Source: Tubiluchus corallicola
Lineage: Eukaryota > Animalia > Priapulida
Length of the DNA: 64,000 nt
Direction: 5' to 3'
Assembly: GCA_030141605.1 (NCBI GenBank)
Contig: JAQGDQ010000332.1
Coordinates: 62,001-126,000, forward strand
Shown here: positions 3,284 through 64,000 of the stretch, one piece after another
Layout: each line of letters starts with the position of its first letter
How positions within the stretch are numbered: the first letter of the stretch is position 1
Translations under genes and position numbers: made by a program
Notes under the pieces: model-generated
Databases searched by the model: none
What the model was told of the DNA's origin: nothing
The model's input: the letters and a program-made list of their open reading frames with translations, nothing else

Positions 3284-8071
<4,788 letters not shown>

Positions 8072-33159: not shown

Positions 33160-36100
33160 ATGGCGTTACTCTTACGGTCAATTTATAGAATTGGCCCTAT
33201 TTGTTTAAAAAACAGGTCCGGTTTGATAGGCACTGTTACTATAAGATATGGTAAGTACTAAATACAAATTATGACATTGGCATTTCAAGGTATTCATTCT
33301 CTAAAGAGATTTTTCTTTAGTACTTATTATAGTGCATTTGTCCCAATTCTTTGATGACCCATCAATTGGTATTCTATAATTATATTGATTTTAGAAAAGC
33401 ATCTAACTCCGTTCCTCTTCGTCCTCTGATGTTGAAAATGGAATTTGCAGGTATAAGTTTGAAACGACTCTAATGGTTTCAATATTTTCTAACACAGACG
33501 GCAAAGAGTAAAATTAAATGGTATAACCATTTCCTGGAGAAATGTAACCAGTCTTGAAGTCTTGAACAATATACTTCTAAAAGTCTTTAGCGACACACTA
33601 GAAGTTTGGGTGCGCATGGTTAGTGATAAATGCTGAGAAAAACAGCTCGCTAACTTGTGATAGTATTAGAGGTTATGATAAGAGGTGAAACAGGGAAATC
33701 GACATGGTGTTGGTGCAGACTATAAAAACATGGTTAGATTTACAGACAAGTTAGGTGGTGTGGCACCCTGATGGTAGAAACAGCTGGGGGTGCTACTCCT
33801 CTGAAGTGATCTCTAGTAATGATTTCTCTCATATCCAGTGGAAGTTCGTTCCGCAAGCATATTGCTCTGGGGTAGAAGGAGTATAAATAAATAGTGACTC
33901 TTACTACTGGTTGAACAAATTTGCTGCTATCCTTGAGTGATGGGGCGATATAAGTTGATAAATTTATGCCTATCCTGTGATGCACTGTATCGTGAAACAT
34001 GTTTACATCGTTTGTCGGTATCTGATTTCTAGTGTTTCCCAAGGCTTTATATGTCTTTGCTGTCATGTCACCGCAGTGTATGTGAAACCACTGGTTACAG
34101 TTGTCACATTGCAGGATGGCTTTTTGCTACTGGCCTGTTACAGTGCCCGCATGGCTACTGTGCTGGATCCGTATTGACCTGTATGTCCAATGCCTGGATT
34201 AGCAGTAAGGTAGCCAATAATGTGTTGTGTATACACTGATACAGAAACGTTGATTTTTTACAATTTATGTGGTCAGCAATATCTTCCATTGTGGTAATAA
34301 CAGAATAAGTATTTTGTGTTTCTGAATTTAAATGTCTTTTACTCAGCAGCTGGTTTCCTAAATGCATTAAGCTAAACATAAAGACCATTACCAGTTGCAG
34401 AATTGAAGTACAAGTACTACGCGAACCTCCTCTCCGATGTTTGCAGTATAAAACGTTACAAGATAACATGGCATTCTTTATTCAAACATTATCACAGAAA
34501 TAACGTCATCTCCTACAAGAGCAAATAAAATGCACGAAACTGTGAAAAATGCTGATATAAAACCTTACCATCCAATTAGAAATTCCTCTGTTCAAGAGAT
34601 CTTACAAGCAGACCTGTCTGAAATTAAGTGATAGTGTGACACTGGAACTGGTTAATGTCCCTCAAACATAGTAAATGAACCGCACTTTGTATTTGTTCCA
34701 ATTCTACAATGCCTTATTATCTGAGAGCTGGTGTTATTGACGAAAAATCAGTTGTATTATCAGAGTATCATTCTCAAACAACCTGAAGTGGAACCCGCAT
34801 ATTAAGCACATTATTTCTCAGGCCAATAGACGCATAGGAATGATAAAATGCTGCATTTCATCATGTAATGCAAAAGTTATTATGCCTCTTTATAAAGCTG
34901 TAATTAGACCGATACTTGAGTATGCGTGCATTGTTTGGTCACCACAGCCTGTTACTGTTAAAAATGGTATAGAGAGAACTCACTGGAGGTGTATTAGTCT
35001 GATATTCACCCTAACTCTGTATCTTCTCTTGAACAATGCCATGATACTATAGATCTTATTAACTGTTATAAAGTCATTAGTGATAGTTCTATTTTGTGTA
35101 GCGACAAATTTTTTTCTAGATCACTACGTGAGCTCTAGTTACGTGGACACAATTCTAAATTATTTGTACAATACTCTCGCAATAATATCAGAGCCTATTT
35201 CTTCTCCTCTCGTGTTGTGGGCCCTTGGAATTCACTTACTAGTGAAACGGTGCTGCATCGAATCTGCTTCAGTTGTTGAGGAGAAGCCGCCAATAACCAT
35301 ACCTGTCAACCTGTTATTAGCGTTGCCCTTATATAGGGTCTTGCTAAACCTTATAAGACAGCACGGGACCTTACCGAATCTGAAAATATGTTAATTTGCT
35401 GGGAGCCAACAGAAACAGACCAGTCACGAGATTGCATATCAGTCCACACAACAACAAAAAATCATTGGAACATGATTTTATTGTCTTGTTTTCATGAAAA
35501 AAAAACTATTTAGTTATGGTGTGATATTATTTATGTATGCATATCAGATGGAATTTTGTAACAAACACTTAACTTTATATATACATTATTACATATATAT
35601 TAAAAAAAAAGACAAAACACATAAAAACGAGAGAGGGTTCAAGTTAATCTCACTTTCTTCCTTATATCCTGTTATACAGTCACTGAATCCTTCTGTCCAC
35701 GTGTTGAGAAATGGCTCTTCAGGTCGTAAAACCCGGACGCTCGCACTTTCACATTTTTCCTACATGGAACACAAAACGAGTAGTCGGAGCCTTCTGACGA
35801 GGCTTTCACCCATCCAGCGTATGCTCCACCACAAAACTTTGGGCTCTCCCATTCTTTTAAATGACGTCCAGTTCCAGTTTTTTGCTTTTTCGCCGGAAGA
35901 ACACGTTCGCTTGCCATGTTTTTTTTCACGAATGAAATAGCGGAAGTGGTTAACCGGATGTTAAAAATTATTAGCTGAGTGTGCGCAATGACAACGTTTG
36001 AACGGAAGTAAGATCGTCTGCATGAAAGTACCGATCGAAAAGGGAATATTCGATGCGATTATTTTCGCTGAGCAACATTTTGATTTTCCCGTATATTTTT

Positions 36101-39100: not shown

Positions 39101-41807
39101 GGGAAATGAGTCGCATAAGTCACATGTCTGGCACACTGATAATGGTAAACTAAACCGTTGATGTGTAGAAATTGTGTTTCTTGGTAAAAAAAAGCTGTTT
39201 CATAAAAAAGTATTTAATTTTTGTGACTAACAAGAGTAAATTTTAGCAACTTAAGCTAAAAATTAGTGATAGTAGTTTGTCTCTGGTTTCTATTCTTGCA
39301 CTAAATGACTAGACATTTTAATCGTTGGTTGTATGTTATAAAATTGAAGAGATTTCTCTTAACACAACATTTTATAAAAAACTGGCACATAATTAGTCGG
39401 ATACAAATTATGAAGCTGCTAAAAATAAAAACTATTATTTTATTGTCACCATTATCAAGCAATTTGTGAATCATTTTGGATATTTTTCAGGTACTGGCTA
39501 TGGCGACTACCCAAAACTTGAACCAGTGTCTAATGATATGAGAGATCCATACCACAATTACGATTACCCGTATCTAAAGTAAGTGATAGAGTACAGTAGG
39601 TGGGTCATAATTATTTGTAAAGCAATACTCACCACTGTTAGCATGTACTTGTAAATCTTTGACTTAAAATTGTGTTTTTGAGGTTGGTAATGTAATTGAC
39701 TTCTCTTCTGCAATCTCACGCAGTACATGAGAGTTTTACAACTTGCACAAGATTTTAAAAATTTTTACAAGGTAGAGAGCACTTTTTGCAGCATTGCCAG
39801 TTAGAGAGCTGCTCAATAAATTTGTCTGGGAGGCTGTGTCTATGTCTAGAAAACTTGATGTTGTTGTCGTAATGAACTCTAGTTAATGTGTCAAAGATGC
39901 AACAATTAAAAAAACAAAGAAAAGGAAGGGCAAAAATGTAGGATTAAACAAAAAGTTTGAAGTTTCTTTTCAAATCACAATATTAATACAGATTTTTAAA
40001 TCAAAATGAGGATCAGAAGATTTGTTGCAAAATAATATTTAAATTTTGTTTTATAATTTAGTTCAAAATTTTACTGGTGCTAAATCTTGTGATTAAGCGT
40101 GGCTTCAGTGGTGTGGAGCATGAGTGAAGCTAGAAAATGTTGTGGCATTATATCACCTTTATCAATTCTTTTTCACAGTTTCTTTTTCTCCTTTTTAGGC
40201 GTGATTTTGGTGAGCCAATTCACATAGATGCCGACATGTACGGTGAAGACAGAATTAGTTTGGCACGACAGCGGTATAGCACGTGGGAAAAGCTTCGATG
40301 GCTCTTTACAGTTATTGGCCTTTTTTCTGCTGCTTGGTTTCTTTGCGAGAAATATCCACTAACACTTGCTGTTGTAAGTTTCGTTAATGTTGTGGCAACA
40401 AAAACTTGCAAGTACAACTTTCATAAACATACATGATACACCAAATGAAATTCTATGGCAAATTTCTCTCTTTCATTAAAGAACATAAGCAAATCGCAAA
40501 TGTGATCGCATGTGACATACTAGAAGAGTCTGTGTTATATGTCTCAGTAGCAAATATTCACTTTAGCTGTTTAAATTATTTGAATTTATGTGTTTTTGTA
40601 CAACTATGAGAAAACTGCAATAGATTTGAACTAAGTGGTGCATGTTCTAATTAATCACAACAAAATTGATGGGTAATAGATCCGAATACAGAACTAGTGT
40701 GTTAACGTCCACCACGCACTGTGATATAGAGCCTGTCTAATATTGAATACTAAAACACAAATGTCAAAATGTTAAACACAGGTTTCCAAAACATGTTTTT
40801 CGTTTTTTCATAGACTTCAAAAACTTTAATTTCGGGTCGGATTGTGTACTAGGCTCACTGCCTGTCTAGTGTCTACACTGAAAAGTTGGTGCTTTCACAA
40901 CTTTTTGCAATTTTTAGCTGTTTTAGAAATTCTGTAGTGTGAAAACAATTTAATATCCTAATTCTTGTCCTTGAGAAAATTGTTTTGTTTTGCATTTCTG
41001 ATATATCCAACGTTTTAAAATTAGCTCTAAATTTGTGGTTTGAAATTTTTTGTCTGAGGTCAGGTAAGTGACTATCTAGCTTTTTAAAAGAGCTCAACAC
41101 ACTGAAATCTAGAATTCGGGATTCAGTTTGGGAGAATAAAATTATAGACCACTGTCAGTCATAAGTGTTAAGCTAATAAGGGTAAAGTAATCCAAACTCT
41201 TGTAGACTATATCTTGATTATTCTCGAAAGAGAAGTTATGTAGATTTTATTACATGCTCATTTTTAGAGCAAGGCATTCCTATTCATTGTATAGGCACTC
41301 TCACCTGTGACTCATTTTAGTCTTGCACACATTTTTAGTGTATTTTTAATACATATTTTTTTAATATTTGTGAATATTGTTGCCAATTTTTAAAATAAAA
41401 TAATTCATTAATTTTTTTCAATAAAATAATCCTTAATGAAGTAATTGAGTTTCCATTGATGTTAATCAGTTTAGCTCAGTGTGTCTGTTCTTTGTTAAAT
41501 AAGCTCCTCCGTGGCTCAAATTATTTTTATACATTTTTTTATTGTTAAATAACTTTGATGAATATGAATACCAACTTTTTTACAGAAAATTCACTTTTAA
41601 ATAAAATAATAATGCATTATCCTGGTGATGCAAAATTTGGCACATTTTAACCCAAGCATGTTTCACACTTAAGGACAGAAGCATTTCTTTCATGTTGATT
41701 TTTAGATGCCAAAGCAGTTTCCTTACAATGAGCTATGGGTGGAAAATGGCGGTGCTCCAGATGAGATGCCAGAAATTAAACATTACACATTTGAACCTGC
41801 GGAATAG
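33160..41807 (+). CDS. NDUFB8: NADH:ubiquinone oxidoreductase subunit B8 (ASHI), mitochondrial, 191 aa
   Basis: Exons 33160-33250, 38398-38517, 39491-39578, 40199-40373 and 41706-41807 join in frame. Arg-rich presequence, [52 protein letters not shown]...KRDFGEPIH, one TM helix, [20 protein letters not shown]. Confidence 0.95.
33345..35245 (+). mobile_element. Decayed CR1/L2-group LINE reverse transcriptase fragments (NDUFB8 intron 1)
   Basis: [13 protein letters not shown] (cf. YLDFxKAFDxVPH) at ~33380; [41 protein letters not shown] at 34780-34945; stops and frameshifts. Confidence 0.8.
33570..34230 (-). mobile_element. Second LINE 3' fragment in opposite orientation
   Basis: ORF 33740-34066 contains [15 protein letters not shown] (cf. 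the LINE ORF2 C-terminal SFFPRTIxxWNxLP motif). Confidence 0.65.
35298..36197 (-). mobile_element. 900-bp non-autonomous DNA transposon (hAT-like) with BED-type zinc-finger remnant
   Basis: Perfect 15-bp TIRs CATACCTGTCAACCT / AGGTTGACAGGTATG flanked by the direct repeat CAATAAC. Internal minus ORF 35672-35929 with [22 protein letters not shown]. Confidence 0.8.
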
Positions 41808-47217: not shown

Positions 47218-47685
<468 letters not shown>

Positions 47686-48974
47686 ACTTACTTAACGTTC
47701 GAAGATATTTATCGAACGGGATAAATCGAGAAATCTACTAATTTATTGTTTCCGAATTTTGTAAAAGGCAGATTGACTAAAGTAATTATACGTGTGTTTC
47801 GCAACTAACGTCTTTTTAGGGCCAGTGTGTGGCGGCAGTAAATGGCGCTTACGGCGAAATCGTAAGCAATTTTATGGTGTGTTGAACATAACATTCACCG
47901 TGTCGTGGAACAATGCGAAGCAACCAATCAGCATTTTCCAAGCGGCTGCCAGCTGCCTGCATCCTCAGTTGCTCTGTGATTGTTGCGTTTATGCTTTTAT
48001 GGGTAAGTTAAAGCCACAGTAGTAAAATCACACTGAAGTAGAACTTGAACAGTATTAAAGAAATTTAAAGTAAAATCACATTTGAGCAAAATTATTAGCG
48101 CCAAACTACTGTAATAAATTGATTGCTTAGCGCAGCGTGAAGCTAATATGTTTGACACCTCGCCACAATGGAGGTAGCCTGTTCGGAAGATGACTAGCCC
48201 TGATCGTTGTTAATTAGGTGTTACGTATTTTCTCATAATAGCGAACAATAGGGCTTGGCTGTGGTTTTACCAAAAACTGTCTTAATCTAAAATCCATATT
48301 TGTCATAGAGTTTCTTGCCTTCAAAACAAACAGCTAGAGCTTCGTTCCCTGCAGCAGTCAGTAGATGCTGACGCACTCAATAGGAGAACAGCCCCAAAAA
48401 ATCCTATTGCGGAGATATAAAATATTCCACAGCACAAAGTAATAATGGGGAAGAATAAAATCAAAAAGCTTCAAGACAAATTATTGAACGTTATTAAACG
48501 TACACATAGCCATGCATCCGTACGTGACCACTAAATTTATAATATAAACTACAGCTCAAATTTAGAAAACATTTGACGTCCAACTTTGTTCGCAGCCTGT
48601 CGTTAACCAGAAAAATTTTCCAAAAAATGTGTTAACTTGTGTATAATATTTTCCAACCCAGAAATAAGATGGTACCTTACTTTAAACAATTTGACTGCTG
48701 CTAAAAATTCTTTCCTTTCTCTAGTACCATAATCCGTCCTGTTCGCTTGTCGAGATTTTCATAAGTGTAAAATAAGCCTTTCCAATTTTATTTCAGTGAC
48801 TCAGTGCCAACATCAGGGGAGTTTAGATTTTGTGGTAGATAATACAGTATGTCAAAACTCTGGCACAATCGGTGTATAAAAATGATATCTATAGGTAATA
48901 CCTTACTGCAGTACAATATTCAATATTTAAAAAAAGAAACTACAAACGTTCCAAACATCTAAAATATCTAAAAA

Positions 48975-50003
48975 TTATGACAAAAAGCTAACTTTAGGCT
49001 CACCGTGACACACTTCTTCCACCTGTTCACCTAACGTATCTATCTCTGTATTAATTTCACTAAAACTCATTGCAGCAGAATTCATTGCTTCCATTACAGT
49101 AGACTCCACGTCAGTTAAATCGGCTTGAACATGAGCAATGGTGCCCAGGCGTGATTTGATAGTTTGCAGCTTTTCAGCGCGATCAGACAATTTGCTGTGC
49201 AACTTTTGGATGTCTTTCGAAATTCCTTTGGTTTCCGTGTTCAAGGTCGCCAAGGAAGTAGTCATATCGTTGGCCTTTCCAATGTCACTTGCTAGTTTCA
49301 TCTGCAACTGATCGACTGCCATCTCCGTTGCATCCATGGCCGTAGCCGCAGTAATTAGAATCGATCTAGCAGAGTCAATGTTCATTGCTGCAGTACCAGT
49401 GCTTGCAGCAACGCTGGTGATTGCAGCAGGCAAAGGAGTTACTTCGTCTATAAGAATACCAGTTTTCGTGTCTAGATCCATAGCCTTTGCGCCAAGCTGA
49501 GCTGCTCCAGCAACCAGTGATTGAGTAGTGAAATCGAGTTTACTCAGTGTTGCACTCACACTTTTCATTTGGCTATCAACTTCGTTCAACCTGCTAATTA
49601 AACCGTCAAGTTTGGTGTGTATTTCATCTAGCACAGGTATTATAGCATTTAATTGCGGTATAGTTGCCTCAACTATTTCGTCAACAATGCTTTGAAAATC
49701 TGAAACAATCGAATCTAGGTCCGTATTCGCAATTTGATCCCCGAAATTTGTAAGAACATCAATAGAGCTGTCTAAACTGTTGACATCGATTGAAATATCA
49801 TTCGTAATGGATAGTACAGTTGTTATAGTAGAAACTGTACCCGTCAAGCTTTTCTTCACCACGTGAAACCATTTGTCCACGCTCCCCAGCCCTTTTGAAA
49901 TACTGGCCACTGTCGAGGACGTTGAACTTCCGGAAAACCCCTGAACATATTGAACTGTTGTCACAGTGAACAACACCACGGGAAAATACTTTGTTAGCTT
50001 CAT
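48975..50003 (-). CDS. Secreted coiled-coil protein, paralogue A (342 aa), unknown family
   Basis: Uninterrupted ORF. The signal-peptide-like MKLTKYFPVVLFTVTTVQYVQG starts at the ATG at 50003 (the ORF track starts 18 codons earlier). Heptad hydrophobic pattern, EIHTKLD and DIQKLHSKL motifs, single Cys near the C-terminus. Confidence 0.85.
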   Translation of the reverse strand: MKLTKYFPVVLFTVTTVQYVQGFSGSSTSSTVASISKGLGSVDKWFHVVKKSLTGTVSTITTVLSITNDISIDVNSLDSSIDVLTNFGDQIANTDLDSIVSDFQSIVDEIVEATIPQLNAIIPVLDEIHTKLDGLISRLNEVDSQMKSVSATLSKLDFTTQSLVAGAAQLGAKAMDLDTKTGILIDEVTPLPAAITSVAASTGTAAMNIDSARSILITAATAMDATEMAVDQLQMKLASDIGKANDMTTSLATLNTETKGISKDIQKLHSKLSDRAEKLQTIKSRLGTIAHVQADLTDVESTVMEAMNSAAMSFSEINTEIDTLGEQVEEVCHGEPKVSFLS

Positions 50004-51654
50004 CTGAAAAATGAGACTTCGAGCAACTAGCGGTTTTGAAATTCTGGTGGACCGCATATTTGTTGTGTGGTGACCTGCGCGTGTTTCTAAAAGTTAATAA
50101 TTCATGATTGCTTTTTCTGTGCCATCAGGTCACGACTAGCATTAATTAATACATTCATTTTAATGTACAAGTTGTAAGCCTATGAAATGTCACTCTGTGT
50201 TAGGTCTATTATTTAACACACTACAGTACATTAAATTTGATTTTAATAAATCTTGTTATACTAACCTTATTTTCGCGGCAAATAACTCGTGTCGATTATT
50301 ACATTTCTTTTTCGTTGCCATTTTATGTTACATAAGTTCTTTGGGTGGAAAACGAAACAAATTTTAGCTAATTTCGCACGCCCCTTAAGGATAATTTATT
50401 ACCAATAATTACTCAAAATTATCAGTAAAACAAATTTATATAGTATATATAGTATGAATTACAGATAAACATATACAAACGATCAATATAATGTAACATA
50501 CTATGTCAATCTATTTCTGACAATTGTTAGCAAATTTACTGATTCCCAAAAATTGCAATAGGCATGGCAAGGTAGCAAGCCGACAAAGGCAATATCTGTT
50601 AAATATCATTGCATATCGACCAGTAATTAATGCAGGCGAAGCATGCAGTTAAATGTATAAACAATCTGGGGCAATCTGACTGATGTAGTTGCACAATACA
50701 CTTTTCTTCTTTTCATTTTTTCCTCTTCTTCCTCTTTCTCCTCCCGACTCTCTCCTTCCACCTCTTTCCCCCTCCTTCTTCTTCTGCTTTTACTATTTCT
50801 CTTTCTTTTTGTCTTTATCTTGTTTTCATCATTAGCACCAGTATGTTTTTCTTCTTTTCTCAAAACCTACTTGTTTCTTTGTTTCGTTTCCTGTTCTCTT
50901 CTACGTTTTTCTGGCACAAGAGAACACTCTTCATCAATAAAGCTTAAAATTCGTCTTCGGATTTTATATCGCTTATACATGCTGTCGTATTGCACACAGT
51001 ATTTGTGTTAGCAGTAACGATATATATAAGTTTAGCTTGCGATAAATCGGAAATAACGATTTTAACGGAAAGTCGTTTGAAACAAGTTTAGACAGCATTG
51101 CATAAAGTTTGAAAAAACAGAGCATTCGTAGCCACTATTGGGTAGCTAAGGAAAAGCTAAAGTTACTTTGTAGTACACTGAAATTTCAATCTTTTTTTGG
51201 TGAATCAGTGGTTCTCACTGGGATGGCGAGGCAGTGCCGTTTTACCAAGTGGGGCGAACATTTTTAATTATTAGTAATTTTCTTTTCTAATTGCATCGAA
51301 TTTTCAAACAGGCATGCGTAATGCTAAGTAATATAACTTTGTATTGAAAGTTCTTTGCGATATACTTTAAAATTTCCTTTTCTTCCTTTGTGTGTTTGTT
51401 GCTTGAATAGTTAATGCGCTATTACGTGCTACTAGAAAACTTAGAACAACCAATGAGCTTAAAACTTATTTAAGAATCTAGAGATTACAGCTATGTTATA
51501 ATTGAAATAGTATAGCTTACATATATTGCAGCTATGTTAAATTGATTTTTTTAACTGCAGGGCTTTTACGAAATAGCTTTGTGATTACTAGTTAAACCGC
51601 CTTTTCTTTATTCCAGTAGTGACGTCTTCGCTACACAGCTGCGACAGTCACTGT

Positions 51655-51965
51655 TGTGGGCGGCTTGCGTCACGCTGTTGCTGACGCCCATGACTATGAT
51701 TCTGCTGCCGTTGACTTCGCTGTTGCTGATGCTGCTGTTCTGATTCTTGATCAGCTCGTCGTCGAGAGTGAGGCCGTCTTTGCTGTTGTAAGTGCCGGCC
51801 TGGATTTTGACCTAATCGCTGCTGCTGCTGCTGCTCTTGTTGTTGTTGTTGTTGTTGTTGTTGTCGATTCTGTTGTTGCTGTTGCTGTTGCTGTTGTCGT
51901 CCCTCTTTACGCAGCTGTTGCTGTTGTCGTCCTTGTTTCCGCGACTGTTGTTGTTGCGACTTGCT
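51655..51965. repeat. Degenerate (GTT/GCT)n trinucleotide low-complexity tract
   Basis: Directly visible. Confidence 0.8.
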
Positions 51966-52977
51966 ATTGCCTCTTGTAAACTTGTTCTCTGTTTTGACAT
52001 TTGCTGACGCAGTTTTAAACACCCGTTCAAACCGAGCATGAAGAGGCGCAGGATAGGGCCTTGAAGTCCCGTATACGTGAAGACTAAAATGACTTTGTGC
52101 ATCTGAAAAAAACGTGAAATGTACACGCCCAAAGACCAATATGCTGCGTTTCCATAGCTAAGTTGTTTATTCCGCAAAAAATCCAAATTTGCTCTAGTCT
52201 GCGAAACTATTACGTACATGAATTAACTACAAATACTGTTTCTACAGAGCTACAGAGCTACGTGCTACAGAGTACAACATCACACTAGAAATAACACTAC
52301 TTTGCACTAGACATTGTTGGTCCAATATTATGTCAAGAAGAGTCAACAATTGTCAGCCAGTTAGCAAGTTAAATTTCAAACACAACACATAGGTGTGCAT
52401 ATTTTGCAAGTTCTGCCTATATGCAATGTAAGAGTGGAAAGGTGACTAGCTCATAGTACACCAGTCTAACATAATGTGGCTTCTAATGCATATACTAGAT
52501 CCATGGGAAGGGTAATGACGCAGAACATTTGTATGTGCAACAAAGGTGTATATTAATTTGCGTTTGAAATACTCGTACTTTTTAGATTATAGCTTATTTT
52601 AAAGTTTTTAAACAATCAAACAGGTTTCTCATTCATCTGCTATCATCTTTCATCTATCACAATTTTCATCTTTATCAGTTTTACTCATTTTTTTCTCTCA
52701 CTAATTCTTTCTTCACTTTTTTGAAACACCCATAACCACATTCATCACATTCATCCCCTGCAGTTATTTCCTCTATATTTTTGTTCCGCTCAACTATTTA
52801 CCTTTTGTTGGACTTTTAATTCAAATATATGCAGTTGTGCTGAATTTAATCTATCTAAGTATTCATGTATTCCTTCAGTTACGCTTTTGTGATAATTTCT
52901 TGCACTTATAACTCTAGTCATCACAAATTTTGTTATTTTGGCACCTTAGCAATATTTTGAATAACGCTTTGTTAAAT

Positions 52978-54775
52978 CACGGTGGCTTGTTAGGGATAAT
53001 TAAATAATAATAAAAATAAAAAAATAATTTATTAACTCGAAATTCAGGCTTAAGACCTCGAAATTTCGACTTAGTATCTTGAAATTCCGACTTAGTATTT
53101 TGAAATTTCGGTTTATTAGCTTTGCACTGATTTTTTGCTTGCTTTTTGTTTTGTTTTGCCTTGAGCTTATTTATGATTTTCGTTCGACTTTTGTTTTGCA
53201 TTTGGATTGTTAGATATAGGATATTTACGCTTTGATATTTTTTTATTTGCTTTTTCATTTGCGTCTATCAAAAAATTCTGTTGTTAAAAAAGAAGCAGCT
53301 TAGTTAGTGACCTATTGGTCTTTCGCTGTTCCTACATAATTATTATTGAAATATTCTACTTTTATAATATTATAATGTGAATCGAATGTTGAGGAAATAA
53401 AATCTCTTGAATTGAATTTCGACTTATAATCTCGAAATGTCGACATAGGATTCCATACAAGTGCAGTTCTCATGGTGGTCTCGCATAGATATCCGTTTCA
53501 ACGATTCTAATCAAGATGTTCCCATTGTTCACACGTGTGGGTGGGTGCTAGAAATTCTCATTTCGTTTACAAGGGTGAATATATTGAATGACAATCTACA
53601 TTTATGCAAGTTTTGCAAGACCGCTACTGAGAGATGAACATCATATGATAATTTTGACTCTAGCCTACGTTGTATTTTAACTAATTTAACTGTGTAAAGA
53701 AAATTAGTTTTCTTTAAAAAATATGTTGTTCTTTTTAATTTTTTAAAAATTCCTGTTTATTGCTACGAACCTTTTGTTGGCAAACGGGCTTAATGATTTT
53801 TAAATTTAATTGCTTAAAGAAGCTGATATGCGAACTTTGCGCCACCTGTTGACGTCACCGTTTTGTGCTAGACATATATGAGATTATGGACGCTTTTGGG
53901 TCATTTTTGGTTGTGCCGAATATTTTAGTGCCAAAACTGGTGACCAAATGTCCTGTCCCGTGAACTTCTTCAGTGTTGATTTGAATTATTTCCTCAATGT
54001 TGAACCACTAGGTGAACATTTGTAAAATTTGTTTAAGTGTTAATTCATTTTGCTCCTTCTTATCTTTTAATTTAATTTAATTGTGCAACTTGGTCGAAAT
54101 TCACTGAGATTAAGAATTATATTTATTTCTTGGATAAATATTCGTCAGTTTGGACAAAAATGGCTTTCAAGGCTTTGTACAAGGTTGTATATTATAGTCT
54201 CATATTCCTATATGTACTGTAATTTGCGTTTCAGTTAATGTTGTGAACTTTGAATATGACAGCCAGCAACAAGTCCGTGTTTTATAAAAAAACGTGGCGA
54301 AACTATGCTTTATTTTACGTTTTTCTACTTGCTATTATAATAAAATAATTAAGATACTGTAACATCTGTCAGTTACAAGTCTCAATTTGCGAAGAATTCG
54401 CTTCACACGTCTTTCACTCACACAGATATTGTCCAAAAATAACAGTCAGTACTGCAGTTATTTCTGTGTTTGTAAAACCAAGAGTGAAATACAATTAAAT
54501 TGCGTTATCTCGATTCATTGATCACGAAAAAGGCAAACGATAAGCACTTGGTGAGTAGGCCTACAACTGTGTAAGTCTTTAACCTAAGTCGAAATTTCGA
54601 GATACTAAGTCGAAATTTCGAGTTACTAAATCGAAATTTCGCGACACTGTGTCAAAATTTCGAGTTACTAAGTCGAAGTGTCGACATACTAAGCCGAAAT
54701 TTCGACATACGAAGTCGAAATTTTGAGTTAATACATTTATTTTTATTTTTACTAAGTCCCTAACAAGCCACCATA
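52978..54775. mobile_element. 1.8-kb foldback-like non-autonomous DNA transposon with 21-bp subterminal tandem arrays
   Basis: Ends GGTGGCTTGTTAGGGA / TCCCTAACAAGCCACC are perfect inverted repeats. Each is followed by an A/T tract and inverted arrays of a 21-bp unit (TAAGTCGAAATTTCGAGTTAC; ~7 copies at 54585-54730, ~4 at 53036-53120). Confidence 0.8.
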
Positions 54776-55902
54776 CTAAATGCATCCTTCAAGTAACATA
54801 ATTTTAATATCCAAAGTTGTCTAAAAACTTGCATAATTGATAGACTTCACTGTCCCTCCAAACTGATTTTATTTTCAGTGCTCTGCAAGTTTGTTTCAAA
54901 CTATTGCTTCCTTTTTCGTTTCCAGCTCCCATTATTTCGCTCATCGGTCTCCATCCTTGATTTTTTCCTGATTCACATCTAGCGTGACAATTCCATATTT
55001 TCTGTTTCATTTTCGCCACCGAAATAACTCAATGACAGAGCCCGCTCATTCTGTCCGGAACGTTATTTCTTTACTTTGGTAGTTCTTTGATTATAGGTGT
55101 ACTGATTTCTCCAAGTATTTACCCAGGGCTGGATTACGGGTTACACGGATCTAAGGTTATCAACAAATGAAGGACCTCAAGTCCCACACTGTAAAAGAGG
55201 GGCACATCTTCGTGTATCCCGAGTTCTCCTCCTTCTAAAGAGTTTATAAGTTTCTTTCAAGATCACAATCAAGTGTCAGTAAAACGTTTTATCTACAACG
55301 GCGGGTGAAAAATCTTCAACAATAGTTATGATTTACTCATTCAAGGAACATCATGTACGAGTAGAAAAAAACATCCAAGCGGCCGTTTCATTTACAGTAC
55401 TGCGTTATGAAAGCCAATTTACATTCAATGACAACACTTTCTGATTCCAAAGAAAGCATTTAGAAACTTTAAAAAACTCGAAAAAGCCCTTGCCTTCACT
55501 TGAATTGCAGAACCTTCATTTCAACGTGTGTAAGCTTAGCTACTTAGAATACTGAAATAAAAACCCGAATTCGAATCCGAGCATTGATCAAAGAAATTTT
55601 CAGGGTTTTTTTTGACAGATCTGATCACCCCAAGAACTCTGTGTAAAGCAAACTATGTTTAAGATAAAAGTCAATGGTTTAAATCTATACCCCTTTTTAA
55701 TTTATGCACATTTTTTTCTTTCAATCAGATTTGGTTTCTAAAATGCGAGAGTTATTCTATTATTCGTTATACGTTATTTCAGTTTTAAAATGTTTTCTAT
55801 AATGTTATAGGTGACAATAATTATTTTAGAGTAGCTTTATGCTCATACGTTTTTAGAATACAATTATATAAGATTATTGTGGTAATAATGTGCATGACAA
55901 CG

Positions 55903-56895
55903 TTACTCACCGCCACAAAGTGCTGCAAAAGCTCCATCCAACTTCGTTTCTATATTTGCAAAATACGACTGTGTAAAGTGCACAGTAGCATCTGTATTAC
56001 GTTCAATGTCATTAACATCTTTAATTAGCTGACCAACAACAGTTACAACAACGAAAATGTCATTAAGTTTATCATCTCGAATTGCAGCTTTCTCGTGCAA
56101 CTTTCGCAAGTCATTTGCGACGGAACCATAAACGTTTTGCAGTGAAGCAACTGCATTTGTTAGCCTATTACTCAGGCTCACTTGGCTACCAGTGTCCGTT
56201 TGGATGCTGTTAAACAGAGGTTCCAGGCCGGACACGGTTGTGAAAGTATCACTAGCCGTCGACAGTAAGTTCACACTACTTTCAGCTATTTTCTCTGACA
56301 GTGACATTGTAGCTACTAACTGAGTAGAAAGTCCACCAACTTCCAGTAGAACCGTGTCAATTTTTTCGTGTGTTTTCTCAAGCTTACTGGCTGTTACAGG
56401 GACGCTTCCCAATAGTGAAATCAGGCCGCGGTTAATTTTAGCCACCGTATTACTCACAACCATTAAATCAGCATAAAAACTGGAAGCCAAGGCGGACTGC
56501 TGGTCAAATTTTTCGTGGATTTTAAAAAAGTCAGCTAGTATTAAGTCCAGTTCATTTAGACTTTCACGAATACGCGTATTTATAGTGCCTACGTCATCCT
56601 GCAATGTTTTAACACTGGCGTCCGTGCTACCAAGTTTGGTATTTATTGTAGCAACTTGGAATAACAAATTTTCTATATCATTCTTAGCATCCACGGCACT
56701 GTACTTCACTGTTTCCACATTATTCTTAATGGCAAGCACATCTTCGACGATATTGTTTAGCAATTTTTCAATATAGTTTGCAGTTGACTTAGTCGACGCT
56801 AACTGCACAGAAGCATACTCAACTTGAGCTCGACAAGCACGTAACGAAATTAGCATAAAAAACAATACTGTTAAGGAAACATTTACAGGCTTCAT
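55903..56895 (-). CDS. Secreted coiled-coil protein, paralogue B (330 aa), unknown family
   Basis: Uninterrupted ORF; signal-peptide-like MKPVNVSLTVLFFMLISLRACRA; heptad pattern; KIHEKFD, KTHEKID and DLRKLHEK motifs; single mature-chain Cys in LCGGE*. Confidence 0.88.
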   Translation of the reverse strand: MKPVNVSLTVLFFMLISLRACRAQVEYASVQLASTKSTANYIEKLLNNIVEDVLAIKNNVETVKYSAVDAKNDIENLLFQVATINTKLGSTDASVKTLQDDVGTINTRIRESLNELDLILADFFKIHEKFDQQSALASSFYADLMVVSNTVAKINRGLISLLGSVPVTASKLEKTHEKIDTVLLEVGGLSTQLVATMSLSEKIAESSVNLLSTASDTFTTVSGLEPLFNSIQTDTGSQVSLSNRLTNAVASLQNVYGSVANDLRKLHEKAAIRDDKLNDIFVVVTVVGQLIKDVNDIERNTDATVHFTQSYFANIETKLDGAFAALCGGE

Positions 56896-59085
56896 TTTAA
56901 AATTTATATACGCGAAGAAACTGTCTTTCTTTCCCTCGCTTTACAAAACAACCAGCTAAATTAGCAAAACAGTACAACGCTTGAGCCAGAGCATGGCATA
57001 ACTCTTCCGTGTTTGACTGATAAATAATTCATGACGTTACATGCCACTTTTCGCAAGAAAAACTCTGTTGTCACTACAACTCTAAGTTACTAGACATTAT
57101 AATGGTGTTAAGCATCATTACAAATCTATAGGCCAGTGTACAGTCTTTCATTATTGAAATAGTTACAGCCATAGATCTGTGTAGCTACAAAGTCTTCGTG
57201 GCTTTAATAAAATGATATTTGGACGATGACATGGAAGTAAGCAGCTTTACAGAACTTTTAGTCTCATGTTTATATAGCTTTCTATGTCATTATGATATTG
57301 TTTAGAAGTGGACAGTTTGACGTCGGAATTTAAATTTTTTGGCTTGTTTATCGAATGCTTTAGGTTGCGCCAGACGAGGAATTTGATTTTCAGTTAATTC
57401 CAGTTCAGTCATTTGCGTATAGCCAGTCATCCGCATTTATTATCCAGGCGAAAATTTTCAATAAAAGTTATTGGAAAAAACACTGGTTACGCATAAATCA
57501 ACTCTGTAACAAACTAGCTAACCCGATTATTATATTGTTATTTTGTATAGGTTTTATTTTATTTTCGTGTTTACACAATACAGTACAATTTAGGAAAATG
57601 AACGCGTTATATAAATATAGCTTAATAAGACGGAATAAAAATGCAAACATAACAACATTTAGTGAAACAAATGAAACAATGATCCAGCCTAATTTAGTGA
57701 AAGAAATAAGGGCAACGAGAGACCAAAGGTCATTGACCCAGAAGATCTTAAATCGAAATCAAATTTTAAGCAGTTTAAACAATTATCCTTGCCACAATAA
57801 CTTGAGCCAAAAATGAAGCCTAACAATTCTCAAGCAATATTTACTGAATAGAATTTTAATCATTTTAAAACAAGCACGCTTCAGTAACGGGTTATGCCCT
57901 CTTATAAATATCTGTCTTTATACACAGAATATAGGTCGACTATTATGTTTGTTGCCACAAATAAATAAATGCCGGACATTACACGAAGGCATTTAATTCG
58001 TGTAATTCATTAAAAATAAGTAGACACAATCTAGAAATAGGATTTCGCTATAGTATTTAATTGACAAATGTTCTCACGGTGACCTCTTATTGCGCATAGC
58101 ATACAAAATTCGCGTCGTTCTAAATCTGCGGGCATCTTAGTTGAAAATATTGATAATGTCACTTCAGCTTCTATGCTGAGTTTTTATGTAAATCAAAATA
58201 AAAAAAACGTTGACGATGATAATAACGATGAAGTGAAGGCAACTATGATTGATCTTGATGATGATGACGAATATAGAGGTAGTGGTAGTGGTAGTGGTAC
58301 GTGGTGACGGTGGCAGCAGCGATGGTTGTGTTAATGGTGGTTGTTGGTGGCAATGATATATACATATATATATATCATTGAATTGTTTAAATATATAGAG
58401 ATTAAACTGAAAGATGAACTTAAGTTTATTAAAAACTGGCTCCTTGTGAATAAATACGCCTTTATCTCGGGGATCATTAAGGCAATCTTGTATGGCTCGA
58501 AGCATCGACTTAATTTTCGTGTATCGTATATTAGATAAAAAAAGGTACAAAATAAGACCAATTTTACTTGTCTTGTTGCAAATTTAGATCAGTGTCTTTT
58601 ATGGAAGTCCATGACTGTGAGAATATGTATTAGATAAAATTAATTCAAAGTTTAAATTTTTGCACCGTAGGCCCTCATGGTAAATTTTTGAACAAAAATA
58701 CCAAATAAAACTTTTGGTGCAACAATCACTTTGATTATGGCAGCCCAGCTTAATATTCAAGTTTTAGTCAGGTTATATGAAAAAGAAATTTAAAAAACTT
58801 GCTACATTAACTTGTGAGATTCGTCTCAAATTTGACATCTCAAGCACACGTCGCAAATGTAATGATGATAATGTAAAGTTGCAGGAGTCTGGGAAATTTC
58901 TTATTGAGTCTTTTTATCACATCTATATCAGTCTTGTAGTGTTTAATTATTATTTCGTTTTCTTTTGTAAGCGGTATGGGTTTATTTTTAATATCTAATA
59001 AAAGTTTTAAAAAAATTAAATACGATAAATAAATAAATGAATAAAATAAAAGCAACGTGTCCGTAAAGACAATACAATAAGCCGT

Positions 59086-59474
59086 TTCACAGTTTCAGCG
59101 ATGGGTGAAGATCGTGAAAAGGTCAAAGGTTAAATGTATCAGACAACGCATTTGTGTACATTTGACATCGCCTCGCAGTACATAATATTGTAATAGTAAT
59201 AGTTTTAACAGCTAGCTAGAACCTTACCTAGTATATTTTTCTTGTTCTCAAGCAAGATCCTGCTAGTAAATCACTCTATGCACAGATTAATGCATAATTA
59301 TGTAAAGTCCAGGTAAAACAACTTGAGGTTACTGAACTGATGCAGCAGACGCTTTGCACCACACACATGTCACGTGACGGTTGTAGTTAAGACGCGTTGC
59401 TGTGGTACACTTAACCTTTGACCTGCAGCAACTGCGAGTGTGCACAACGAAAATGTGAAAAGGCTTTTTAATCT
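59086..59474 (-). repeat. Interspersed repeat, copy 2 (inverted relative to 46455-46830)
   Basis: Reverse-complement match as above; internal GGTCAAAGGTTAA (59121) / TTAACCTTTGACC (59411). Confidence 0.85.
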
Positions 59475-60430
59475 AATATTTTGTTTTCTTTTCATTTTTG
59501 TGGGCTTGTTGACAATATCTACCATGGAATTTTTATTTTTGGATTTTTCAGTAAAAATTAGTGAATGTTATTATATGGCAAAATGATCATATCATATTTT
59601 ACCCTGTTAAAGTTACATACAAATTGGATAAAAATCCTTGGCACTATAGCTTTCTAAAAAGGGCCTACTTTTTATGTCCATCCAATGATGACCTGAATGA
59701 AAGTTTATTTAATCTAAAAAGATCACATACAGATTGGGTGTCCTCGGTGTAAACATCTTCTATATGCTGATGATACCTGTACGCTAAAATCTACAGGCTT
59801 TCTACATCTACAGACAATCTACATAAAACACTTATGGCCACGTATTTTTGAAAATAGTGCCATACTCTCAACTCAGCAGTGTGCTATATAATGAAGTCTC
59901 TGATGACTTTAATATAAATAAAATGAATCGTTTGCCATGCATTATTGCTAGACCCAATATCTCATTAAATAAATTCTTCTAATATGTGAAATCTATATTT
60001 TCCCATTTATTCTGTAGCAACACACATCAGACATTCAAACAATGCAAAGCAATAATGAAGTTACTAATATAACTTAAGTATTATGCTAATGTTTATTAAA
60101 TGAATTATTTAGGTTCACGTGTATAGCACAATTAAATTATGTCTACTAACTGTGCAGTGGTCTTTATTTTTCATTTTTATTTCAGCTATTTTAATAACAT
60201 GTAATAAAGGGGCATTGGTAGTTCTAAAACTGCAAAAAAACTTGGTACAAGTGCTGCACAATATTTAAACTACTAGCAATTTGTAATATTATGTGTAGTT
60301 CTTTTAATGCAGAATTTAAGCAAGCTCCTTCACCAGTCGAATTAACACTCCAATCAAGTTGTAAAGACAACAAAAGATAGGCTGGTACGCCGAATCATTT
60401 GCATATTCACATTTAGAATCTCTGCGCACT

Positions 60431-63343
60431 TCACGTGCAAAACGATAACCATGCCTCGTGTAAAGTAGTTAATGCAGCTACGATGCTAGCAGTTCCTGTT
60501 GTAGCAGTAGTTGTCAGAGTAGAGATCATCTGATCGATGCTCGTAATGGTAGACATAAGTCCTGAGACGTCACTGAGCATCTGGCGGATGCTCGTTATTT
60601 CTGTAGCCTGATTATCCAGCTTTTCATGTAGTTTGTTTAAATCGGCGATTACGTCATCAAGTTTTGCGTTAACCTCTGCAACGGTGGTGAGTAGATCATT
60701 GTTCAAAGCCACATCCGTCTTCACGTCCGACTCCAACCATGTAACTTTTCTGTCCACTGTTGCTGCGATTAGACTAAAAATATTTTCTAATCTAAGCACC
60801 ATTTTAACGTTGTCAATCAAATTTTGGACACCAGACAACAGTGTTGAGGCAAGCGCGGTTAAGGCGTCAATGTCAATCGATCCCAGTTTACTATTTACAC
60901 TTTGGATAAATGTTTTTGCTTGAGTAATATCTGAATTAATAGTGACAGTATTGCTGTTTACGTCATTTACGTTTGCCATAACAACTAACAATTCAGACTG
61001 AGTGCTTGTCACAATACTATCTAAGTCATCGACCTTTTTATGAATTTTTGCAATTGTCCTCAACATGCTGTTAACCGTGCCTGTTACTACTAAAAGAAAT
61101 TTTTCTGCGTCGGCAACTAAAGCTAAAAAATCATCGGCCTTGCCATTAGCAGTTGTGATATGGCTGCTTAAACTGCTCGCGTCTGTTAATGAGCTAGGTA
61201 CTAAGTCACTAATTGCATTGAGCTTCTCATAAAGCGAAAAGAAATCTGCGGTTATATGCCAAGCAGAAAAAATTAAACTGATTACGCTTTTGTTGAGTGT
61301 TTCCTTTAGAGACGCATCTCCTTCAAGCACATAATCTTGTCCCTCCTCGGGTGCCTCGATATTCGTCAGTGATGTGAACTCTCCTTCTAACTCTTCTTTT
61401 GTTATTGAACCTATTGTATCTAGTGAAGAAGCTAAATCTGTTACTGCATGACGGACAATTTCATCCACTAACGTATCAAGGCCATGTGAATCTCCTAAAA
61501 CTGGCGGCACAATTGCAATATTTGGGGCTTGTGAAAAATTTTGATCAGACGCTGTTTCGGTCGTGGCTATATCTTGTTGCATCGTAAGAATACCTGTTGA
61601 TGATGCAACTGTAGTCTCTGCTGCGTTTGTTGCCTCAGTTTCATTTGACGTTAATAAAACTGCTGTAGTTTCTACTGTCTCACTCTCGTTGTCATTCTCG
61701 GTTATATCTTGTTCCACCATAAGAATACCTGTTGATGCAGCTGTGGTCTCTGCTGTGTTTGTTGAATCAATTTCACTTGACGTTAATAAAACTGCTGTAG
61801 TTTCTACTGTCTCACTCTCGTTGTCATTCTCGGTTATATCTTGTTCCACCATAAGAATACCTGTTGATGCAGCTGTGGTCTCTGCTGTGTTTGTTGAATC
61901 AATTTCACTTGACGTTAATAAAACTGCTGTAGTTTCTACTGTTTCACTCTCGTTGTCATTCTCGGTTATATCTTGTTCCACCGTAAGAATACCTGTTGAT
62001 GCAGCTGTGGTCTCTGCTGTGTTTGTTGCCTCAATTTCACTTGACGTTAATAAAACTGCGGTAGTTTCTACTGTCTCACTCTCGTTGTCATTCTCGGTTA
62101 TATCTTGTTCCACCGTAAGAATACCTGTTGATGCAGCTGTGGTCTCTGCTGTGTTTGTTGCATCAATTTCACTTGACGTTAATAAAACTGCGGTAGTTTC
62201 TACTGTCTCACTCTCGTTGTCATTCTCGGTTATATCTTGTTCCACCGTAAGAATACCTGTTGATGCAGATGTGGTCTCTGCTGTGTTTGTTGAATCAATT
62301 TCACTTGACGTTAATAAAACTGCTGTAGTTTCTACTGTCTCACTTTCGTTGTCATTCTCGGTTATATCTTGTTCCACCGTAAGAATACCTGTTGATGCAG
62401 CTGTGGTCTCTGCTGTGTTTGTTGCCTCAGCTTCAATTGACGTTAATAAAACTGCTGTAGATTCTGTTCTAAGCGTGTTACCCGTATTCATTGATGATGT
62501 AGATACTGTCTCACTCTCGATGTCATTTTCGGTCATATCTTGTTGCATCATAGAATTGCTTACAGATTCCTCTCCATTTTGAAACTGCGCCATGCTTTCA
62601 ACGTCATTCTGCTCTTGCCTTATCTGATCTGTTATGCCACTTTCTGGAGAAGAGACATTTGACAGTGGCTGGAAAATTTCTTCAGAAATAGTTTGCCCAC
62701 TGAGTAATCCACTTGTAATATTGTCAAAATCGTTTTCATCTGAAGCATCTGTAATTCTAATTTCATCAGTCTGTCCGAGCGCCGATGAAACTGTGATCGC
62801 ATTTACGGAATTTGTTTGTCCTGTTGTTTCTGAATCAGTATTTTCAGTTGTAGTGTGCATTGTCATTACTGCAGCTGTTGCTTGACTTCCAAAATCTGTT
62901 TTCCCTGCATCTAGTGCGTTTGTTGTAATGTCTGTAGTTTGTTTAGTTACACTTACTGCATGTGTCGTCACTTCAGCTTGCTCCGTCATTTCTGAAGTTC
63001 TAGCTTGGCCCTCAGTTTCATTTTGGTTGACCGCTTGTAACACTGCTTGCAGTATCGGTTGCAATACGCTTTGTAGCATTTCAAAAGCACTACTTGAACC
63101 TCCATTAGTTTGTGTGTTTGGTGGTGATCCTATTGTAGTTGTAACTGCAGTGCTTGTCAACTCGTTGTTTCTTTGCTCCTCTTCGGCTAGTGCTTCTCTA
63201 GTTTGAACTTTAGTTTCTACCACTACTGAAGACATTTCCGATGTTCCTTCGGTTGCATTTATTAGTGTTTGTTGTGCATCAGTTTCTTGTAAAATTACTG
63301 TTGTAACTAGTAACGTGATAATCCAGAAATGCGAGAAACGCAT
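60431..63343 (-). CDS. Secreted protein, paralogue C (970 aa): signal peptide, Thr/Ser/Glu-rich mucin-like region, 44-aa tandem repeats, C-terminal coiled-coil domain homologous to A and B
   Basis: Uninterrupted 2.9-kb ORF; MRFSHFWIITLLVTTVILQETDA signal; KIHKKVD and DLNKLHEKLD motifs; only Cys in SFCT*. Confidence 0.92.
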   Translation of the reverse strand: MRFSHFWIITLLVTTVILQETDAQQTLINATEGTSEMSSVVVETKVQTREALAEEEQRNNELTSTAVTTTIGSPPNTQTNGGSSSAFEMLQSVLQPILQAVLQAVNQNETEGQARTSEMTEQAEVTTHAVSVTKQTTDITTNALDAGKTDFGSQATAAVMTMHTTTENTDSETTGQTNSVNAITVSSALGQTDEIRITDASDENDFDNITSGLLSGQTISEEIFQPLSNVSSPESGITDQIRQEQNDVESMAQFQNGEESVSNSMMQQDMTENDIESETVSTSSMNTGNTLRTESTAVLLTSIEAEATNTAETTAASTGILTVEQDITENDNESETVETTAVLLTSSEIDSTNTAETTSASTGILTVEQDITENDNESETVETTAVLLTSSEIDATNTAETTAASTGILTVEQDITENDNESETVETTAVLLTSSEIEATNTAETTAASTGILTVEQDITENDNESETVETTAVLLTSSEIDSTNTAETTAASTGILMVEQDITENDNESETVETTAVLLTSSEIDSTNTAETTAASTGILMVEQDITENDNESETVETTAVLLTSNETEATNAAETTVASSTGILTMQQDIATTETASDQNFSQAPNIAIVPPVLGDSHGLDTLVDEIVRHAVTDLASSLDTIGSITKEELEGEFTSLTNIEAPEEGQDYVLEGDASLKETLNKSVISLIFSAWHITADFFSLYEKLNAISDLVPSSLTDASSLSSHITTANGKADDFLALVADAEKFLLVVTGTVNSMLRTIAKIHKKVDDLDSIVTSTQSELLVVMANVNDVNSNTVTINSDITQAKTFIQSVNSKLGSIDIDALTALASTLLSGVQNLIDNVKMVLRLENIFSLIAATVDRKVTWLESDVKTDVALNNDLLTTVAEVNAKLDDVIADLNKLHEKLDNQATEITSIRQMLSDVSGLMSTITSIDQMISTLTTTATTGTASIVAALTTLHEAWLSFCT
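61565..62545 (-). repeat. Coding minisatellite, 132-bp unit, 6 full copies plus partial flanks
   Basis: Unit EQDITENDNESETVETTAVLLTSSEIDSTNTAETTAASTGILTV; DNA period 132 (e.g. GTTCCACCATAAGAATACC at 61711 and 61843). Confidence 0.97.
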
Positions 63344-64000
63344 TGTGGAGACTCGTGTGCGCGTTTAGTCTTATAAACTCAACAACAGTTCTCGCGAAAT
63401 GCGCCGCTTTGCAATCTGTTAAATCCCATTCTTACAATTCTACATTTATGAATAATTCATTAGGAAAACAAATCTATGTTCCAAGCCATTAGGTCAGTTG
63501 CAAAACATACTAAAACGGCATGACAGACCTTTCACATACGTTGGTGACCTCAATTCTAATGAACTTGTTATTGGAAGTTTTAGAGCAGAATCCTGCTTTC
63601 GAACTGATATTTTTCTTCAGTTATTCTGGTATATGACTGTCTTATAAAGAACGCACTACATTCCCCATTACGCATGCGTTTTATTCCTTATCATTTTATG
63701 TGGTTTACAAAATATCGGCAACTTTTCTAAGCACACAAATATATGTCACCGGTTATATTTTCATTTTTGTCACGTTCATTTAATCATGTCCTAATGCGAA
63801 TATCATTTTTAATCAATTTCGTTGGGTCAGTGCACAACTTCAAAGAATAATTAATATGGTAAGCCTATATGTAATGGAAAACGTTACTTGTGATGCCAGG
63901 CACGGTTCACCGGGAAAGCATACATAGCTCGAGAAATAATGGCGGTACTGATAACAAAATGACAATTTTGAATTGAGTGCTTTACTTTTACGGTTCACTA

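Follow-up and report, generated by a model that had tools for sequence, protein, structure and literature searches.

An apparently undescribed cluster of three predicted secreted coiled-coil paralogues in the priapulid Tubiluchus corallicola, candidates for an extracellular biomaterial

What might three adjacent genes for diverged proteins with a long coiled-coil pattern do in a marine worm? The question is raised by a 64,000-nucleotide stretch of the genome of the priapulid Tubiluchus corallicola (assembly GCA_030141605.1, contig JAQGDQ010000332.1, positions 62,001 to 126,000; the 64-kb window), in which three minus-strand open reading frames (ORFs), here called A, B and C, lie at 48975..63343. 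The cluster is real, coherent and apparently undescribed. It is plausible that the three genes encode a biomaterial, the hetero-oligomer, the tissue and the material being what we infer from sequence. We tentatively suggest that the A, B and C chains are co-expressed, secreted and assembled into in-register, parallel, probably three-stranded mixed rods that build an extracellular fibre or gel. Counted together with a variant in which homo-oligomers or four-stranded bundles are formed, a structural role is probable.

Gene A (48975..50057, minus strand) is an ORF of 360 aa, open from ATG to stop, or of 342 aa from its likely start at M19 (50003), in which a predicted signal peptide (residues 19–40) is followed by a short Ser/Thr-rich N-terminus, a heptad domain and Cys350. 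Gene B (55903..56895, minus strand; 330 aa) has a predicted signal peptide (1–23) and a coiled-coil pattern nearly throughout. Gene C (60431..63343, minus strand; 970 aa) combines a predicted signal peptide (1–23), an acidic mucin-like region (24–600), a linker, a C-terminal heptad domain and Cys969. An earlier sequence-only reading of the locus had described three same-strand ORFs without coding introns, each with a signal peptide, and both descriptions held. All three frames are uninterrupted from ATG to stop and the coding parts are intron-free as read from the DNA, introns in the 5' untranslated regions being possible, and rule-based prediction found an h-region at each N-terminus (11-residue Kyte-Doolittle hydropathy 2.05, 2.75 and 2.84 for A, B and C) followed by small residues at -3/-1, suggesting that all three proteins are secreted. 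The signal peptide of A begins at M19 rather than M1. A polypyrimidine run and TTTTCAG (50003–50015, minus strand) stand directly before this second ATG, and the 5' end of A is uncertain because the sequence resembles an acceptor; a splice or trans-splice acceptor there would take out the upstream in-frame ATG. Candidate polyadenylation signals, all on the minus strand, follow A (AATAAA, 48787..48792, 183 nt past the stop), B (ATTAAA, 55696..55701, 202 nt) and C (AATAAA, 60176..60181, 250 nt, one of five such hexamers within 400 nt).

The three proteins share a set of landmarks. Each heptad domain carries two His-x-Lys motifs, IHTK (146) and LHSK (286) in A, IHEK (126) and LHEK (266) in B, and IHKK (767) and LHEK (905) in C, and closes in one Cys, the protein ending 1–10 residues beyond. 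The motifs are 140 (A), 140 (B) and 138 (C) residues apart, and the second lies 64, 61 and 64 residues ahead of the single Cys, bearing out the nearly fixed spacing noticed earlier. No DNA similarity is left among A, B and C, and identity to B is 25% for A and 19% for C. Shuffles of three kinds (plain, register-keeping and whole-heptad; 1000 each) never reached the local alignment scores of A-B (174) and A-C (177); that of C-B (143) was reached by 0, 0 and 7 of 1000. Because unrelated coiled coils from a huge library score as high, a gap-free test was made, in which 91-residue segments anchored on the His landmarks were compared with 2000 register-keeping shuffles. For the second landmark, none of the 2000 shuffles reached the observed match in any pair (A2-B2, A2-C2, B2-C2); for the first, 2 (A1-B1), 13 (B1-C1) and 21 (A1-C1) did so. 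The top whole-domain ungapped diagonals of A-B and A-C were also in register. The paralogy is carried by the gap-free landmarks and adjacency rather than by score alone, and the view of A, B and C as old paralogues of low identity and constrained length stands. An older internal duplication of 140 residues is suggestive only, being significant in B (B1-B2, 10 of 2000 shuffles) and C (C1-C2, 42 of 2000) and not in A (A1-A2, 392 of 2000). No fourth paralogue was found in the window by tblastn.

All three domains show the periodicity expected of coiled coils. Their hydrophobicity spectra peak at periods of 3.485 (A), 3.495 (B) and 3.525 (C) with powers of 17.0, 30.7 and 20.0, above the highest value among 300 shuffles per protein (11.3–12.9). 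In B, one register runs through 43 heptads (residues 25–327, 55915..56823, minus strand, ending at Cys327), with Ile, Leu, Val, Met or Phe at 33 of 44 a and 28 of 43 d positions compared with 7 of 44 b, 6 of 43 c and 4 of 43 f positions; drawn out as one straight helix (0.15 nm per residue), it would make a rod of about 45 nm. In A the register is unbroken over about residues 125–350 (49008..49685, minus strand), which include both landmarks and the terminal Cys, and in C the heptad domain spans about residues 675–969 (60437..61321, minus strand) with a register shift near 826–850. Continuous periodicity, claimed at first for all three domains, thus holds for B and for A from about 125, and not for C. 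The same applies to the description of each protein as one domain of ~300 aa, which fits A and B; in C this domain is confined to the last third. Pro is as scarce as had been noted (0.6–1.3% of the domains), with two Pro within the single register of B.

This periodicity bears on the idea that A, B and C are monomeric amphipathic bundles that carry lipids in the manner of exchangeable apolipoproteins. Spectral power at the 11/3 (3.67) period of apolipoproteins is nearly absent (0.2, 0.1 and 0.8 for A, B and C, against 17–31 at about 3.5), and no Pro-punctuated 11- or 22-mers are present. The proteins are all-helical, amphipathic and predicted to be secreted, as such carriers would be, and in the AlphaFold2 model the chain doubles back on itself, as is common when an oligomeric coiled coil is modelled from one chain. 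The models were of low confidence (predicted local distance difference test, pLDDT, 47 from the sequence alone and 60 on average with a three-row alignment) and almost entirely helical; helices of 95 and 133 residues occur in the one built on the three-row alignment. VIA-align matched generic helical bundles and hairpins, with four-helix bundles on top at Z 13–15; such values are usual for helical models, and the fold searches exclude no family. We regard a lipid-carrying role as highly improbable.

The composition of the cores points to oligomeric rods. Ile, Val or Thr occupies 12–18 of the 30–44 a positions and 14–26 of the 31–43 d positions per chain, and Ala, at 8.9–10.0% of the domains, occupies 2–5 of the 30–44 a or d positions. 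Beta-branched residues of the Ile/Val/Thr type at a and d favour trimers in GCN4 variants. Hydrophobic and small residues are frequent at e and g, and the domains are acidic, with net charges of -21 (A), -12 (B) and -20 (C). The highest 19-residue hydropathy in the mature domains is 1.26, 1.25 and 1.59, without a membrane-spanning stretch, and beta-branched acidic cores of this kind would favour three-stranded extracellular rods over a toxin of the Hbl/Nhe type.

The alternative offered earlier, with a hydrophobic patch in B as its ground, was an alpha-helical pore-forming toxin of several components, like Hbl and Nhe. Such Hbl/Nhe/Ahl toxins likewise comprise three neighbouring helical proteins that have diverged yet are similar in size; A, B and C are adjacent, predicted secreted helical paralogues with a 300–350-aa part in common. 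The patch measures 12 residues (11-residue score 2.5) and has no counterpart in A or C, whereas the Nhe/Ahl toxins are described with hydrophobic stretches of 54–63 aa in the B component and 22–23 aa in the C component (PMC6602965). None of the priapulid proteins has such a long membrane segment, and they differ further in their continuous heptads, animal secretory signals and mucin-like brush; a single register over 43 heptads with two Pro is ill-suited to a bundle of shorter helices with a head domain. Pfam PF05791 (Bacillus_HBL) gave a weak score for B only among the rows listed (E 0.12), at 12.7 bits well below the cut-off of 29.1. Weak fold matches to ClyA, AhlB, YaxAB and XaxAB appeared amid many unrelated helical proteins for the models with pLDDT 47 and 60, that to ClyA in Foldseek having a template modelling score of 0.46–0.47, a root-mean-square deviation of 13–16 and E 0.16–0.22. 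A 600-aa mucin brush is not known to have a counterpart in the ClyA-type family. The toxin alternative is therefore weak, and we consider it very unlikely.

That brush is the feature that sets C apart. About 600 aa precede its coiled coil, and region 24–600 consists of 32% Ser+Thr and 19% Asp+Glu, with a net charge of -99. The part before the coiled coil holds 11 N-glycosylation sequons. A tandem repeat with a 132-nt (44-aa) unit (61568..62465, minus strand; 6.8 copies, 95% matches) contributes an N-E-S sequon in six copies. These properties suggest an acidic, presumably glycosylated, mucin-like brush.

To place the proteins, we searched for relatives by sequence, profile and fold. Exact look-up returned none of the three proteins. 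Word-seeded searches over lengths 168–578 confirmed no homologue of B among 4475 candidates and none for the three-domain alignment among 7995 at E<=0.1, longer or shorter forms lying outside their scope. A profile search of 1.84 billion representatives gave 105 rows of partial matches (best E 3e-12), most of which look prokaryotic or phage by their ends; none of the 105 has two such His landmarks and a terminal Cys, and no secreted animal relative is recognisable among them. The ESM Atlas gave a best value of 0.82, to arthropod coiled-coil clusters for B, and nothing for A. Pfam, NCBIfam, PHROGs and PDB sequences yielded sub-threshold generic coiled-coil families only, and Foldseek, with the low-confidence models, no match at E<=0.001. 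None of 92 candidate stretches in viral contigs was confirmed, and the one confirmed among 332 metagenomic candidates was an unrelated bacterial SMC-like ORF. A viral fusion-protein origin was considered and rejected on weak generic scores and the lack of a transmembrane anchor or fusion peptide. The proteins accordingly match no recognisable known family, as had been supposed from the sequence. Since Priapulus proteins were in the searched collection and no relative was found, the family would be confined to a narrower lineage, unless it has diverged beyond the reach of these searches; in both cases A, B and C appear to form an orphan family.

Two other public sequencing runs gave a first view of variation. 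Run X1 holds close DNA, in which none of the listed insertions and deletions in C disrupts the frame (net +24 at 61502–61508, +3 at 62712). Among the 40 of 174 difference rows listed for C, 19 lie in the coding region; 17 were classed, the two beside the insertion being left aside, and these comprise 14 non-synonymous and 2 synonymous codons, a neutral-like ratio (p=0.39). In an X1 contig over 60994–61607, six of seven differing letters fall in the linker of C, outside the coiled-coil part. Run X2, guessed to be RNA and uninformative on expression, contains a 168-base contig over B 56117–56284 with 17 differing letters and no gap; 6 changed and 3 silent codons were counted among the 11 of 17 differences listed. 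At 85%, X2 does not cover A or C. Another sample thus contains a sequence that resembles B at about 90%, and genes of the A/B/C type appear to change fast.

Such change would suit secreted rods that stay soluble, evolve fast and serve in recognition or defence instead of bearing load, for example in a gamete coat, among seminal proteins, or as body-cavity clotting proteins like the three clustered chains of fibrinogen. This explanation draws further on the lack of relatives despite a priapulid proteome in the searched collection, on the mostly amino-acid-changing differences among those listed, and on the variation of repeat number and linker in C. Against it, A and B have no attached binding, catalytic or polymerisation domain, and 15 of the 16 altered C codons listed fall outside the coiled coil. 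We consider it a doubtful account of the cluster as a whole.

Are there precedents for a material made in this way? Bee silk genes are single-exon, and the title of a 2006 paper gives them as clustered. Small paralogous coiled-coil proteins that form one material have been described (PMC3032785, PMC12284834, PMC9999432). In aculeate (bee, ant, hornet) silk, a single gland makes four paralogous coiled-coil proteins of 30–40 kDa at equal levels of expression (PMC3032785), and these assemble into an antiparallel heterotetramer whose core of ~210 aa is rich in Ala (PMC12284834). Like silk proteins F1–F4 (PMC3032785, PMC12284834), A, B and C are a few diverged, predicted secreted coiled-coil paralogues that keep their register, and A and B are also small and almost all coiled coil. 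They differ in having a core of ~300 aa rich in Ile, Val, Thr and Leu rather than one of ~210 aa rich in Ala (PMC12284834), in numbering three in the window rather than four, in their conserved terminal Cys and His landmarks, in the mucin-like brush of C and in coming from a marine worm, not an insect. No homology to F1–F4 was detectable over lengths 168–578 or among the 105 profile rows. The size of silk proteins (30–40 kDa, non-repetitive) is matched by A and B; C has 970 aa and a 44-aa repeat. The honeybee comparison drawn at the outset survives as an analogy, in the diverged coiled-coil paralogues, and fails in the Ala-rich core and in homology. By this reading A, B and C most likely work like aculeate silk without being members of that family.

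Other secreted coiled coils offer partial parallels. Mantis ootheca proteins are of this kind. Whelk egg-capsule proteins are described as intermediate-filament-like coiled coils (PMC9999432, PMC12568988), and together with hagfish thread proteins they show that secreted marine coiled coils can form extracellular materials (PMC9999432). Pfam Filament was absent from the 21 rows for B and the 7 rows for whole C (E<=1), and from the 25 of 64 rows listed for A. Fibrinogen and laminin consist of three paralogous chains joined in a secreted three-stranded coiled coil with terminal disulphides; the fibrinogen genes are clustered, and one chain has a long repetitive extension. A, B and C differ in lacking fibrinogen, LN, LE and LG domains in Pfam and in having no coding introns, and Laminin_I and Laminin_II scored below the cut-off (19.8 against 34.6 bits and 15.3 against 33).

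If A, B and C do form mixed rods, the process may be pictured as follows. A single type of secretory cell would express all three genes together, and the secreted chains would zip in register into mixed, parallel, probably three-stranded rods ~45 nm long. Three strands are suggested because the a and d positions are rich in Ile, Val and Thr, and mixing because the lengths are matched. The C-terminal ends of the rods could be joined by disulphides through the terminal Cys, C would contribute a glycosylated, water-binding brush, and seawater cations or a change of pH acting on the acidic surfaces and conserved His might trigger assembly. The rods would then bundle into a fibre or gel such as a cuticle layer, glue, slime or egg coat. 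That landmark spacing has been kept at 19–25% identity counts for a shared in-register assembly.

A shared upstream element offers a hint of co-regulation. ATGAATTATT is the sole 10-mer common to the 250-nt regions upstream of A, B and C, and lies on the coding strand in each: at 50096..50105, beginning 102 nt ahead of M19 of A; at 57023..57032, 137 nt ahead of the ATG of B; and at 63451..63460, 117 nt ahead of the ATG of C (all minus strand), where it sits inside the near-palindrome ATGAATTATTCAT. The window holds six copies compared with 0.74 expected, three of them 102–137 nt before the likely starts, and among 18,187 triples of 250-nt segments drawn at random, only 5 have any non-simple 10-mer in common. 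The remaining copies are at 1946–1955 (plus strand), 41399–41408 (minus strand) and 60100–60109 (plus strand). The DNA around the copy at 41399 is AT-rich, and no long ORF follows it. We regard ATGAATTATT as a candidate promoter site that resembles those of homeodomain or POU type; no paper listed in a literature look-up with POU4 contained the string.

Several observations weigh against mixed, in-register rods. Pairing of g/e' charges does not favour mixed rods above pure ones: eight of the nine pairs have counts of 1–2, and the best is C with itself (5 attractive, 0 repulsive). Landmark spacing is off by two residues in C and three in B, and because of these differences and of the register shift in C, a perfectly in-register heterotrimer would need local distortions. 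Unrelated coiled coils picked from 1.84 billion proteins score 181–209, as high as A, B and C do among themselves. Silent changes are not in excess among the differences listed for the other runs, so that either sequence constraint is weak or the genes evolve fast, as reproductive and immune proteins do. The ATGAATTATT element came to light post hoc and may be a relic of duplication. A complex prediction for A(95–354), C(716–970) and B(75–330) without alignments scored 0.00 with controls that did not fold, and counts neither for nor against mixed rods.

The charges and spacing speak for the same structural role performed by homo-oligomers, or by antiparallel or four-stranded assemblies as in bee silk, perhaps with a fourth gene beyond the window. 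The hydrophobic and small residues at e and g, as in wider bundles, point the same way, and one bee silk protein alone can form a native-like fibre (PMC3032785). Matched lengths at 19–25% identity are, however, explained more easily by a shared assembly. Beta-branched a and d cores suit trimers, and Ala is scarce in the core. This variant seems unlikely, if still worth serious consideration, and mixed three-stranded rods remain the reading we prefer.

The surroundings of the cluster offer a measure of the lineage. The window has 31–42% GC, and recognisable genes lie within its first 41 kb: EGF-repeat protein exons with acidic spacers (5374–6455, minus strand), a RING-variant (MARCH-type) domain closing a long exon (15244–16515, possibly with 22544–22936, plus strand), FBXO22 and NDUFB8. 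FBXO22 (F-box and FIST; 30885–32132, minus strand) is a single open frame of 415 codons, apparently without coding introns; among its named relatives the Priapulus caudatus protein comes first (41% identity, 300 bits), well ahead of the second at 174 bits. FBXO22 and this protein group together at 98/95 support in a tree that was built from 13 of 28 available rows and includes no arthropod, nematode or kinorhynch, a placement that by itself points to a priapulid or another scalidophoran. FBXO22 is also 91% identical to a Logan protein. Two exons of NDUFB8 (PF05821; 39397–40433, plus strand) mark the nearest recognisable gene, ~8.5 kb from the end of A. No other Pfam-detectable exons were found between or around A, B and C in 66 of 71 small frames (32200–64000), the other five overlapping known ORFs or repeats. 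A PHD-finger fragment without other domains (33743–34126, minus strand) is possibly a decayed transposon ORF1. High-copy repeats at 51046–51586 and 58620–59701, with summed X1 contig depth in the thousands and matches in X2, are likely short mobile elements. Two related 21-nt tandem arrays lie on opposite strands between A and B (53039–53107 and 54584–54727), and a (TC)n array of 460 nt lies at 47220–47681.

Priapulids are an early-branching ecdysozoan group whose secreted structures include a tube glued with gland secretions (Maccabeus) and a cuticular lorica (PMC8588615), as well as a fertilisation membrane (PMC2693540). These are no more than possible sites for A, B and C. We found no description of secreted coiled-coil proteins of priapulids in the open literature, subscription journals and supplements being outside the scope. 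Should A, B and C prove to be merely fast-evolving secreted proteins, their value would be that of an orphan family with clear annotation landmarks. Secreted coiled-coil materials have arisen several times, as in bee silk and snail egg capsules, and a priapulid three-chain biomaterial of independent origin, built on a 45-nm disulphide-capped heterotrimer in which one chain bears a mucin brush, is a speculative proposal that we think has a small chance of being right. If true, one molecule would unite thread and gel, setting in seawater by way of acidic surfaces and His switches, and priapulids would gain their first described system of secreted structural proteins, as far as the searched literature goes. 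Small, non-repetitive secreted coiled-coil chains are sought-after templates in the making of recombinant materials. A and B are of this type, their core chemistry differing from that of the known ones, and B is an unusually clean rod of 43 heptads. A, B and C would be the first candidates for proteins of the priapulid cuticle layer, glue or egg coat.

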